DNA from: Paraspadella gotoi
Taxonomy: Eukaryota; Animalia; Chaetognatha
Assembly (NCBI GenBank): GCA_051294375.1
Contig: JBJCIZ010000239.1
Location: forward strand, 5,594,993-5,658,992
Reading direction: 5' to 3'
DNA length: 64,000 bases
Part shown: in pieces, positions 8,421 through 46,655 of the stretch
Layout: every line of letters begins with the position of its first letter
How positions within the stretch are numbered: position 1 is the first letter of the stretch
Program-made: the position numbers and the translations under genes
The notes under the pieces: model-generated
Told to the model about the DNA's origin: nothing
The model's input: only the letters and a program-made list of their open reading frames with translations
Databases searched by the model: none

Positions 8421-9231
8421 TATTATTATTATTTATTATTATTATTATTATTATTATGGATGGGCGCGGGCTCGCCAGTTCTCCGCCAACTGGCCAAAGA
8501 AAGATCCGCCCCCGCCCATCACCCCCCCTACCCCCGAAAACCTTCGTAAGTTTTCCTAACTCCGATCGGCAGCTGACCCTTGAATTTCCTCGATCCGGGG
8601 TCTCTTCGCCCGCTCGGGGTATTTTTTTTTTCTTTTGTTTTTTCAGACACAGCTTAAGCAAACGGTTCGGCGTTTTTTTTTTTTACGTTTTTTTGCTTTT
8701 TTTTTTTTCGCGTTCCCAGGCTCTAGTCTTTTTACGTCGGTTTTTTGCCGTTTTTATCGCCGCACCGGTTTCTTACGTTTTTCTGTTTTTTTATCTCCCA
8801 TTTTTCGGCAAGTTTTTTACGTTTTTTTTTTTTTTTTTCGTTTTTTTTATTTTTTGTTTTTTTTTTCGCTTTTTTGTTTTTTTTGTTTTTTTTTTTTTTT
8901 TCTTTTTTCCGTTTTTTTTTCTTTTGTGTTTTTTTCTTTTTTTTTTTTGGTTTTGGTGTTTTTTTGAGCGATGGGGGTTTTTTTTTTTTTTTTTATCGCT
9001 CTTAATATTATTATTCAAAACACATGGTGATTTTTTTTTATCGATCAAAAACACCAACGAGAGGATCAATTTGAACGAAGAGTCAAGACGGACAAACAGA
9101 AGACAAGAGACAGAGAGACGCAAGAGAAAACGGTAATTTTTGCGGCGACTTTAAAGCAGCCTGAACGCACGGTCCGCACTCGGCCTCGTCTCAATGGCTG
9201 AGCACGGCAAATCAGCTGGCGCTTCTCCGCT

Positions 9232-34211: not shown

Positions 34212-34575
34212 AGGGCATTGCTATATGTTCAACCCGCCTATAAGCAATGCTTATTAAGCTTGTACCCTTGAGTCGTTACCCGGTGGCTCATTGAGTAATA
34301 CTATCACATGATGACCATTGGGGACCGGGATCAATCCCCCAGTGGTTCCTAGCCTGCGGCAAGAGTGAGGAAGGCCTTAAACCTCCTTGGAGGCGTGGAG
34401 AAACCATCAAGCCTCGTTCAAAGCCCAGGACCCGTAACATGGTTGCTAGAGCATGATTAAATAAGTTGCGGATGGCACTCTTCTGCCAGCTAAGCGTCTT
34501 ATTCACAAAAGTGCTACGCCTCACGTCGAAGTCCGTCTCACAAGTCAGGTTAACTCACCCGAGAGATTAATTGTG
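34212..34575 (+). mobile_element. SINE-like element, copy A (tRNA-like head + twister-like body)
   Basis: acccggtggctcattgagta...accgggatcaatcccc head and gtgaggaaggccttaaacc...gttcaaagccc body shared with the copies at 41.7, 44.8 and 47.0 kb. Confidence 0.75.
34355..34436 (+). ncRNA. Degenerate P5-type twister ribozyme candidate (copy A)
   Basis: gt-GA-GGA-aggcct-TAA-ac...hairpin...g-T-TCA-AA-GC-C; T1 and T2 each carry one mismatch. Confidence 0.5.
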
Positions 34576-41300: not shown

Positions 41301-41676
41301 NNNNNNNNNNNNNNNNNNNNNNNNNNNNNNNNNNNNNNNNNNNNNNNNNNNNNNNNNNNNNNNNNNNNNNNNNNNNNNNNNNNNNNNNNNNNNNNNNNNN
41401 NNNNNNNNNNNNNNNNNNNNNNNNNNNNNNNNNGGGACGACTGCGTCTGACAAGTTTTTTCGATACTAAAAGTTAAGGAGATGACTGAAGACGCAAAATC
41501 CGATTTAAAAATTCAAAAACATTATTTTTTTCTTGGGAGAAAGGTGACGAAAAATATTTAAGCCTCTTACGGAAGCAATATTTTTTGTATTGGCATTTTT
41601 TTTCAACAAACTTTTTTTTTGACACGGCAATACCCTTCGTTGTTTTTTACTTGACTAAGTCGTTTTAATCTATAAT

Positions 41677-42005
41677 CCGTCATGACCCGGTGGCTCATGA
41701 GAACCAGGTACCGGGATCGATGCTTCCTACCCTGCGGAAAGCGTTAGGATGGCCGTAAACCGCCCTGAGAGCCTGGAAAACTTCTCAAACTTGGTTCCAA
41801 GCCCGGGAACAGTTCCATTGCCTGCTGAGGGCGGGAACTGAAGTTACGGATAGTAGTCTTCCAGGCCCGCTTAGCGCCTCATCCAAACCAAATCCAGACA
41901 CATACAGTGAAATAAAAATTATCTCCTGTGGCCAGCAAGACTATTAAAGCTGCCTCACTGCTGTCCGTCCTCAGCCTCGTCTCAATGGCTGAGCAGGGCT
42001 AAATA
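41677..42005 (+). mobile_element. SINE-like element, copy B, with 3' hairpin tail
   Basis: gacccggtggctcat...ggtaccgggatcgatgc head, twister-like body, tail ctcagcc-tcgtctcaat-ggctgag. Confidence 0.75.
41733..41816 (+). ncRNA. P5-type twister ribozyme candidate (copy B), general-base G substituted
   Basis: gt-TA-GGA-tggccg-TAA-ac-c-GC-C, P3 tgagag/ttctca, P4 cttgg/ccggg, canonical loop T-TCC-AA-GC; TCC pairs with GGA (T1) and GC with GC (T2). Confidence 0.6.
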
Positions 42006-42469
42006 CATCTCATTCCATCCCATGCCGTCCCGGGTTCCAATCCCTGAGTATCCCGGTTTTCTAGGCTTAAACTGTGACGGTGCCGGTTTTAAACATGCCA
42101 GTGACAGGAGGGGCGCGTCACTGGAGGGTCCGGCAGCCCCACGCCAGTGGTGAGATACCCCCCGCCCCGGGATATCACAGGCTATCCTCCGTGCCATACT
42201 CCCATCAAATTTGACTCGCTGACTTTTAAGACCATCGATGCTCCCTTTCCCCCAATTCAGCTCCTTTCTCCCCCCCCCCGTACTCCACAACCCCCCCCCC
42301 TCTAAATCCATCCCCACCGTTGTCCAAACATCATGCCGCGCCTTCCAAACTCTCCAGCCCTCGTGGGGCGTTCTCTTCAACTCGCCTCTACATTTTCTTC
42401 TCATCAGTATGTCGACGATGCATCTTATACCGCGTCTTCGTCTCGCTCTTCAACTCGCGTCGATGACGC

Positions 42470-43100
42470 TGCTTTTTTTGTTAAGCGCCCCCCCCCTTAT
42501 TTCTGTACTCTTATATACATGAACCTAACTTTGACCCTATTAATTAACCCAAATCATTAAACCTAATCCCTAACGCTAATCCCTGACCAAAACCTAATCT
42601 TTGACCCTATTTCTAATCTTTTAAATCTTATAAAAAGTATTTATCTTCAAATCCATAACCAAATTACTAACTTAAAACTAATCCTGAACTCTAAACCCTA
42701 ATTTTTTAACCCTAATCTCTTGCCTAACCATAACCCAAATTCCTGACAGTAACCCTAATCCTTAATCCTTAACTCTAATCCCTAACCTCTAACCTCTAAT
42801 ATTTAAACATGAAAAACTTAATCCTTTAATCCTTAGGTTAGGGCGCTTTGGTGAAAGAAACTGGTTTCATTTTCCCTGAACGTCCCATTTCATTTTAAAA
42901 TCATAGTTAAATATTTTGTTAGGGTTAAAAATTAAAAAGAATTAAGGGTTAAGGATTACTTTATGGTTAAAGATTAAGGTTAAGAAATAGAGCGTGGGAT
43001 TATCTTACGAGTTTGGTAACAGATTAAGGTTAAATATTAGAATTAAAACTAAGTATTAAAAATTTAAAAACAGATATGGGTCGCTTTTGGAAAAGAGAGC
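42470..43100. mobile_element. Two adjacent, oppositely oriented telomeric-repeat MITE-like elements (42470-42861 and 42863-43100)
   Basis: gctttttttgttaagcgccc..(ccctaa)..gggcgctttggtgaaagaaac, then ggtttcattttccctgaacgtccc..(ttaagg)..gggtcgcttttggaaaagagagc. Confidence 0.65.
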
Positions 43101-43113
43101 TTAAAAATTCCAG

Positions 43114-43756
43114 GTCGCATTCGTCTTCCTCTTTCTCGGCGAAACTGCAGGAACACTTCCTCTGTTCCCCTTCGCTTGGCGAAACTGGACAGTGAAGACT
43201 CCCAGTCGATGGATCACATTTTTAATCCTCGGTTTCCTCATCAATCTAAACTTCATCATCTGGCGCGCATGCGCGGACGCCATGCCCCTCGGCGTCTTCA
43301 GCGCCATCGCCGGCTGCGGCTTTTTCTTCGCCCCGGCGATCACCGCGGCTCTGCAAAGACGCTGCATCGGCCGCGTGGACGCCCTCGGCGTCGTCGTCGC
43401 CATCGTCGGTCTGCTGCTGGTGACGCATCCTCCGTTTCTTTTCAATCATCCCGTCAACGCCCCCGCGTGGGCCTACGTCTTCGCGATCCTTCAAGCCGCC
43501 ATCTGTCTTTCGTTTCCTTTCTTCTTTGGCGCGACGGCCGACGCTCATTGGTCCAATTTTCTCGTGCTGCGCGTCATTTGCAGCACCCTCGTCGCCGCCG
43601 TCTGCTTCGCCGTCTCTGGCGGCGTCGCCGCGTTCGCTGCGGCGCCCCTGACGCCGCTGGCCGACGTCTTTCTCGTCGGCGTCATCTCAACCATCTACCG
43701 ATTGGCGCAACAAGTCGGTTGCTACGAGTTGGAGGCGTTCGACGCGGGCCTTGCAG
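43114..43756 (+). CDS. EamA/DMT-family (SLC35G-like) membrane transporter, main exon
   Basis: ttccag| acceptor, open 214-codon frame with many TM segments, MPLG...AI and GLLLVTHPPFLF (compare SLC35G RPPFLF), gcag|gtag donor in phase 1. Confidence 0.85.
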
Positions 43757-44085
43757 GTAGAGGGGCGTAGTCTGTCGAATTGTAGATGGCGTTAGTCTGA
43801 ATTTCGAATATGGGAAAAAAAACTCTTCATTGTAAAACTTATATAAATTTTCTTAAGAAAAGAATTATGGCAAATAAAATTTATAAAATTACATTAAAAC
43901 TAGTAATTAGATTTTGAATTTTTATTTATGGAAATGAATTATCAAGATATTGAAAATTTTTTTATTGAAAAAAAAATCTTGTAATTATAATTTTTTTAAA
44001 ACTTTTTTTAATCAGAATTTATTAGTTATTTATTTAATTTATAATATTTTGAATCTTTGATCTCCGCCAACGCCAATTCGCATGA

Positions 44086-44137
<52 letters not shown>

Positions 44138-44140
44138 CAG

Positions 44141-44352
44141 GGACGTTGGGAAATCTCATAAACTCCGGCAACATCGCGTCGACGGCGCTGTTGTCCATGG
44201 CGTTCTTCGGCGAGAGATTGACGCCGTTGGAAGCGGTGGGCGTGGCCGTCATCTTCGTCGCCATCTTTGTCGTGACGATGGCGAAGAGTTTTGAGAAGAG
44301 GAGGAGGAAAGAGGAGGAGGAAGAGGAGGAAAAAGGAGGAGGGGGAGGGTGA
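44141..44352 (+). CDS. EamA/DMT transporter, terminal exon
   Basis: (CT)n-ccag| acceptor, phase-compatible with the previous exon; ALLSMAFFGERLTPLEAVGVAVI matches the EamA C-terminal 'lGErl...lG..li' pattern; stop at 44352. Confidence 0.85.
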
Positions 44353-44785
44353 GGAAGAAGGAGAGGGAGAGAGGAAGGAGAAATCCGCTCTTGAATGAAA
44401 ATGGAGAGAGAATTTCGGAAGAATAAGATATTTTTTTCTCAAAAGTTTAAAAAGAAGATAAACCTGCGAATGTTATTTTATTATTTTATTTTTTTTTTTT
44501 TTATAAAAAAATTACATTTTTTCATTATGTAAATCAGTGAAAGGTCTTTCGACCGAAATACTCAAATTGTTTCGATGTATAAATTATCTCGACCCTTGAT
44601 CCCTTAATCTAAATATTTAACCTACTTATGTTACCTTAACCTATAACTCAATTCTTAACCCTAATCCCTAATCTTAACTTAATCCTTAACCTAAACCATT
44701 AACCTATTTCCCGATCGAAATTTAAAATTTACGTTAAATTCCAAATTTAAGATGAAATAGGGCGTTCTGGGAAAATAAGGCGCTT

Positions 44786-46296: not shown

Positions 46297-46655
46297 GGTC
46301 ATATTTTTGAAAAGGGCCTCGTTTCAACATAAATTCAGAATTGAGTACGGGGTTAGGAGAAGGGTGAGGCTCAGAACTTTGTTGGGAGATTTGGTTGAGG
46401 ATTAGGGTTATGGATTAAGAATTCGGGAAGGGGGTTAGGGTTGAGGATTAAGAATTCGGGAAGGGGATTAGGGTTGAGGATTAAGAATTCGGGAAGGGGA
46501 TTAGGATTAATGATTAAGAATTCGGGAAGGGGATTAAGGATTATGATTTCTCGTACGCTTTCGGGATCTCTTTAACTATTTGGTGAAATAATAAAATTGA
46601 GTTCAGAGAATATAAATTATAAATTAGAAGAATGAGGCGCTTTAGGGAAATAATT
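46297..46655. mobile_element. Telomeric-repeat MITE-like element containing a 33-bp x4 minisatellite (46412-46543)
   Basis: Ends ggtcatatttttgaaaagggcctc / gaggcgctttagggaaataa; unit ggattaagaattcgggaaggggattagggttga. Confidence 0.65.

Follow-up and report, generated by a model that had tools for sequence, protein, structure and literature searches.

The window, which is the whole 64-kb stretch of DNA analysed here, carries four copies of a dispersed repeat of ~230 nt, designated E1, whose central domain is a descendant of the type-P5 twister ribozyme. The twister ancestry of this domain is very probable, and E1 is filed as a variant outside RF02684, since it has no intramolecular P1, a P2 of 3 bp and a bulge in place of 4 bp, and scores below the thresholds of the family. 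With its tRNA-like head, followed by a twister domain that recurs at the 3' ends of some published Naiads and by a tail of ~75 nt, it is likely that E1 is a SINE and a derivative of a Naiad, that is, of a Penelope-like element.

The initial annotation had located four copies in the window, on both strands, and all of them (copies A to D) are present at these positions. It had taken a motif of ~84 nt as the repeat, whereas the alignment and nhmmer extend the repeat to its full length with head and tail; neither the tRNA-like head nor the link to Naiads was part of that annotation. The pairwise identity among the copies is 65-76%. All four are solitary, and the nhmmer profile detects no fifth full copy, tandem array, pLTR or inverted truncated copy in the window. 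The copies and the parts of copy B are listed below.

34274..34505, + strand: copy A, with full head; G>T in T2, one mismatch each in T1 and P4
41680..41885, + strand: copy B (head, twister domain and tail), delimited by alignment, nhmmer and contig depth
44785..44889, − strand: copy C, with shortened head; A2>C; ends within P4, without L4
47047..47262, + strand: copy D, with full head; deletions in the 3' strands of P3 and P4; T2 mismatch
41683..41725, + strand: tRNA-like head of copy B, with A-box-like (41691-41701) and B-box-like (41715-41723) segments
41735..41749, + strand: P5 5' strand, P2 5' strand (41741-41744, bulge 41742), general base 41745, conserved A, T1 strand 41747-41749
41749..41756, + strand: palindrome occupying the place of P1, without a hairpin on its own; computed two-molecule duplex of −10.5 to −14.1 kcal/mol
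41756..41763, + strand: predicted cut 41756/41757 (position inferred from the twister consensus), A2, 3-nt P2 strand 41759-41761, T2 dinucleotide 41762-41763
41764..41789, + strand: P3 hairpin; 82% of cells paired, two pairs changed on both sides
41790..41812, + strand: P4, capped by the conserved L4 loop that supplies the partners of T1 and T2 (L4 matches Rfam twister-P1), and P5 3' strand
41813..41885, + strand: tail of ~75 nt, common to copies A, B and D

The core blocks of the domain follow the P5-permuted order and carry the UAA, GA, GC and L4 letters. This order had been proposed before and is borne out, together with the predicted cut sites at 41756/41757 in copy B and at the U/A step 34378/34379 in copy A. 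Copy B retains 19 of the 20 conserved letters of the twister descriptor used below, and its P4 has 5 bp. Complementarity in T1 and T2 is complete in copy B; one mismatch each is found in copy A and a T2 mismatch in copy D, and copy C is without L4. At the general-base position, 41745, copy B has T and copies A, C and D have G. The T is real, because it is also found in the short-read contig of the locus itself; the contig of this locus in run X2 differs in a single letter, at 41780. Copy B has a further mismatch at the closing pair of P3 and another in P5. In the computed structure of the majority core, P3 is strong, P4 reaches only ~0.5, and the GA/T1 strand is trapped in a rival helix with the tail.

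The P1 and P2 segments should be considered separately. The P1 segment is a palindrome of 6-8 nt, for which an intramolecular hairpin is not predicted. The palindrome in copy A is perfect but different, in that two transversions have occurred with the symmetry kept. The majority of the related contigs have C at 41750 (52, 51, 35 and 6 contigs of four runs), giving a perfect palindrome. P1 is reported to be dispensable in mini-twisters (PMC5408937), so the palindrome need not gate cleavage. P2 consists of three pairs and a bulge in all four copies, with three nucleotides on the 3' strand; the consensus of the initial annotation already shows this short strand, left unflagged there. By comparison, P2 has 4 nt in 55 of 57 structure-filtered P5 twisters from phages and prokaryotes and 3 nt in the other two. 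A changed P2 length might disrupt the active site, according to the review in PMC5408937. Natural type-P1 twisters are described as tolerating imperfect P1 and P2 (PMC11662667). The P2 5' strand of E1 is also able to pair with the T2 dinucleotide, and competition between these pairings inactivated a mutant of the rice twister (PMC5113685).

Each copy had been described as bearing its own lesion. This fails for copy B, whose T is common to >92% of the contig depth at that position, in a sample biased toward B-like copies. The list of lesions was also incomplete, as copy C additionally has A2>C and no L4, and copy B the mismatches in P3 and P5. In twisters the G acts as general base and the A as acid (PMC5408937). 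Published measurements give a fall in the mean fraction cleaved from 0.76 to 0.34 for G>U at the general base and nearly abolished cleavage for changes at A2 (PMC11662667), and any change at the first T2 G of the rice twister kills activity (PMC5113685). By analogy with these mutants, copies A, C and D are likely to be catalytically dead and copy B to be crippled. The chances are judged even that E1 members bearing the G would still cleave. It should be noted that the short-read contig of the B locus differs from the assembly by nine gaps over 41600-41932; the assembly thus has indel errors, and not every single-base lesion listed for copies A, C and D is secure.

Contigs of four public runs, three of them DNA runs and one (X9) guessed to be RNA, were aligned to 41600-42150. 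In the three DNA runs, the summed depth over the E1 core is 14,222, 34,995 and 2,980 against 46, 169 and 14 in the flank, or 200-310 times the flank, a ratio that does not represent true copy number; hundreds of E1 copies are likely. In run X1 the contig depth rises from 46 to 1,054 at 41676-41694 and is back down by ~41885. Across the predicted cut, the depth in this run is 14,222 before and 12,879 after, with no step up. A T>G change at 41745 is not listed at the 8% level, which indicates an abundant subfamily with T in the general-base position; the contig sample favours B-like copies, an expected change at 41770 being likewise unlisted. The consensus of loose ends behind 41781 (agreement 0.71-0.78) shows a canonical L4 closed by a perfect 5-bp P4, and also the 3' strand of P5. 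The proposal of a P5-permuted twister thus stands as to ancestry and pairings, with P4 and the P5 3' side restored by the related contigs and with compensatory changes in T1, T2 and P2 of Naiads, and does not stand as to a canonical Rfam Twister-P5.

The match to the twister was compared with chance by means of a descriptor that counts 20 conserved letters plus 13 pairings, in which a 3-nt P2 was allowed only after the match had been inspected, and of 40 block-wise dinucleotide shuffles of the window on both strands. Copy B scores 32 of 33, above the shuffle maxima of 25-28, and copies A (28) and D (26) lie within the shuffle range. Covariation among the four window copies alone does not exceed chance significantly, as 47 of 500 shuffles score at least as high. 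The covariance-model search proposed in the initial annotation came out negative, with scores near background for every copy. The Rfam twister models give no match at E ≤ 1 over the whole window and none on copy C; the best are twister-P3 on copy A (20.3 bits, E 0.042) and twister-P1 on copy B (13.5 bits, in the L4 part only), and RF02684, with a gathering threshold of 37.6 bits, matches neither copies A, B and C nor the whole window. Our own P5 model, trained on 15 phage twisters picked from the 57 structure-filtered ones in favour of those with P3, ranks copy B first of seven matches at 12.2 bits (E 0.33).

No phage match to E1 was found, and the exact E1 motif has no match in the metagenome contigs searched. 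With looser patterns, 47 loci were obtained in metagenomes and 120 in prokaryotes, and four of them (4/167) pass a loose filter; only one of the 167, L288, looks like a true twister, and a short palindromic P1 occurs in none. The bulged-P2 pattern gave 17 loci in viral contigs, with the pairings in none of them. As a separate observation, L004 (146-211, + strand) and L288 (145-216, + strand) are natural P5 twisters in which the spacing from P2 to T2 is shorter by one nucleotide; L004 scores 47.5 bits despite the missing nucleotide, which is above the Rfam threshold.

E1 is short, non-coding, dispersed and multi-copy, as is expected of a SINE2 element, and we consider it probable that it is a Pol III SINE. 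The boxes in the head of copy B have 9 of 11 matches to the A- and B-box consensuses, so that the head is tRNA-like by short motifs, and the B box is also carried by the loose-end consensus upstream of 41726. Compared with copies A and D, ~22 nt between the boxes are deleted in copy B. Neither ARAGORN nor Rfam identifies a tRNA in the E1 head. Target-site duplications are weak, with AT-rich candidates of 8-9 nt for copies A and D and none for copy B. The lack of T4 runs in E1 has no statistical weight (joint P 0.24). By eye, the tail was also compared with an HDV-like ribozyme, a reading rejected because the P1/P3 order is missing.

The 3' ends of 15 of the 54 Naiad consensuses in the supplement of PMC8557442 were examined by eye, 12 of them over the last 330-420 nt only. 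Five of the 15 show a P5 fold with palindromes at the place of P1. Three of these, Naiad_Bpla, Naiad_Mphi and the record before Naiad_Bpla (Naiad_Mgal by table order), combine P5, P3, P4 and L4 with a P2 in which a 3-nt strand faces a bulged pyrimidine, and Naiad_Scon and Naiad_Mmer have the same fold with a 4-bp P2. The letters of T1, T2 and the first P2 pair in the five ends differ from those in E1 and still pair, although T1 of three of the five contains one U-U; T2 takes three different pair sets across the five ends and E1. Because the bulged P2 and the palindrome occur both in Naiad ends and in E1, they are marks of a subtype and not of decay. Judged from these sequences, the E1 fold and the Naiad fold quite probably belong to the same subtype. 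That Naiads drive the mobilisation of E1 is possible, at slightly less than an even chance. Motif searches of the same supplement give no direct sequence match between E1 and Naiads, and no RT motif cluster is present in the window.

By eye, the P5 fold is absent from the other 10 of the 15 Naiad ends (oysters, ark and pearl shells, one mussel record and hemichordates). Naiad_CGi, Sglo, Olur, Tgra and Pmar and four hemichordate Naiads have another conserved 3' motif containing a palindrome in the supplement records, which could be a different ribozyme or a processing signal.

A second family, E2, lies 250 nt downstream of E1 copy B.

41928..42141, + strand: E2, with a leader of ~55 nt, a tRNA-like head whose boxes lie at 41986 and 42033, and a P5 fold resembling the twister
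42072-42141, + strand: P5-like fold of E2, predicted cut 42090/42091

A partial second copy is found at 9147-9211. In the E2 fold, the T1 letters differ yet pair, P3 is a perfect 7-bp helix, and the P1 segment is palindromic. Each box has 10 of 11 matches to its consensus. With a relaxed descriptor E2 is the sole match in the window (0.19 expected), and when P3 is required, one match occurs in 600 shuffles; on the strict descriptor it scores 27, which is within the shuffle range, and its L4 has one extra base. The summed depth of E2 reaches 656,146 in run X1 against 46 in the flank; E2 is far more abundant than E1. E2 starts ~55 nt ahead of its A box, and the leader therefore precedes the promoter. 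For joints ending at 42088-42091, near the predicted cut, an indel in a T run is the better explanation.

These features can be accommodated by the following mechanism. RNA polymerase III would start at the tRNA-like head, and the E1 RNA would fold into P2-P5 with both pseudoknots, while formation of P1 would require a second RNA, joined by way of the palindrome. The U/A step would be cleaved with G and A in their usual catalytic roles. Since the cut would part the promoter from the tail, E1 lineages would spread via uncut RNA, and damped forms would be favoured, whether damped through dimer gating or through U replacing the general-base G, the state found in the abundant subfamily of copy B. 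Head sequence is kept in all four copies and the depth does not rise behind the cut, which argues for spread from uncut RNA. The fold may be retained as a handle for a partner enzyme, and E1 would likely spread with the enzymes of a Naiad-type element. We give this account, a tRNA-headed SINE with a body from a Naiad-type 3' end, a fold kept as an enzyme handle and damped self-cutting, an even chance of being right; the covariance scores at background and the purely structural link to Naiads count against it. A bolder version, in which at least two tRNA-headed SINE families are mobilised by Naiads and not by LINEs, each with a working dimer-gated P5 twister, is rather doubtful.

E1 could instead be a neutral relic, a LINE-mobilised tRNA SINE of a dead family whose body once came from a twister-bearing element and has no present role. 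SINE bodies often derive from other retroelements, as described in PMC5786205, and the model scores at background, the non-significant covariation within the window, the T at the general base of an abundant subfamily and the ~75-nt tail behind the fold are all consistent with such a relic. However, neutral decay does not readily account for the different perfect palindrome of copy A, which kept its symmetry through two transversions, for the intact P4, L4 and P5 in the majority letters, or for the same fold in other letters in E2, and we regard the relic as unlikely.

Still less probable is an active retrozyme like the hammerhead SINE of Schistosoma, in which arrays elsewhere in the genome would be transcribed as tandem multimers whose adjacent twisters pair by the palindrome and release monomers or circles, with solitary copies as dead ends: a tandem copy is absent from the window, E1 copies start at the head and not at the cut site, and no rise in depth is seen behind the cut. 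The topology itself might be wrong or due to chance, the domain being of P3 type with an upstream L4-like loop, of P1 type with a downstream GA-GGG as in copy B, or a set of unrelated SINE hairpins, and the best Rfam matches are indeed to twister-P3 and twister-P1 and not to P5. The upstream loop is L4-like only in copy A, where it lies within the likely 3' arm of the tRNA, and the downstream GA-GGG varies across copies and contigs; both readings were rejected on these grounds. The P5 reading, by contrast, uses the conserved downstream L4 and agrees with the Naiad ends, and phage-contig matches in sequence only are without pairing (0/17), in disagreement with chance. A wrong or fortuitous topology is accordingly very improbable.

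E1 resembles the type-P5 twister (RF02684, clan CL00120) in the order P2'-GA-T1'-P1-UAA-P2-GC-P4/L4, in the L4 letters and in the T1/T2 pairing, and differs from it in the palindrome at P1, the long P3, the scores below thresholds and the location in a eukaryotic (apparently animal) repeat. Among Penelope-like elements, Naiads (Craig et al. 2021, PMC8557442) share the P5 fold with palindromes in five of the 15 ends and the bulged P2 in three, but these elements are 3.4-4.4 kb long and coding and have two palindromes, whereas E1 is non-coding and tRNA-headed with one palindrome. They are reported to be without canonical hammerheads (PMC8557442). Palindromic hammerheads acting as dimers are described as typical of Penelope-like elements (PMC4209133). 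The hammerhead SINE-like repeats of Schistosoma, the metazoan retrozymes and the dimer hammerheads of Penelope-like elements (PMC6765202, PMC7229834 and PMC4209133) are similar to E1 in the internal ribozyme with a palindromic closing helix and in being of Pol III type or non-autonomous; as described there, they have a hammerhead and are usually tandem, while E1 has a twister. The T-variant twisters of the Perere-3 RTE of Schistosoma mansoni (PMC8501958) likewise combine an animal retroelement with a twister whose P1 is weak, but this twister is of type P1 at the extreme 5' end and its cut defines the start of the element, whereas the cut in E1 would fall behind the promoter.

The series of head, borrowed body and tail in E1 is known from tRNA SINEs with LINE-derived bodies (PMC5786205), whose bodies come from 5' UTRs of RTE, Ingi or Vingi; no twister or Penelope-like donor is mentioned in the accessible part of that source. 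A literature search that left Roth et al. 2014 and Repbase SINEs outside found no P5 twister in a SINE or Penelope-like element, and the twisters it found in animal retroelements are only the type-P1 heads of Perere-3. The accessible part of bioRxiv 10.64898/2026.07.22.740005 mentions neither twister nor tRNA.

At Naiad 3' ends, a twister in permuted order whose P1 is a palindrome would fill the hammerhead gap of these elements, being, if dimer gating is true, the missing counterpart of the hammerhead, and would show the convergence of two unrelated ribozymes on a dimer design. If a tRNA-headed SINE has been assembled on this module, it would suggest that SINEs have partners of a class other than LINEs. 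According to Kojima, a SINE with a ribozyme behind its head would be truncated at the 5' end, giving headless daughters (PMC5786205). This argument becomes testable, as a ribozyme trailing the promoter would be selected to cut poorly, and an abundant subfamily here bears U. The variant escapes current Rfam models, so that annotation probably falls short for repeats of this kind.

The window as a whole looks like part of a repeat-rich eukaryotic, probably animal, assembly. Pfam gives nothing reliable over 44 ORFs of the window. A hydrophobic frame at 43105-43770 and 44140-44290 (+ strand) resembles a small-molecule transporter (weak PUNUT match, E 0.029), likely with a further exon downstream. 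The segment 26000-30000 is GC-rich (54% and 46%); its frames are broken, Pfam gives no reliable match there, and it may be the remnant of a coding element. Telomere-like TTAGGG variants abound in dispersed repeats at 42500-43050, 44580-44780, 46366-46563 and elsewhere, and one of these repeats lies next to the end of copy C. The window also has a 33-nt tandem array.
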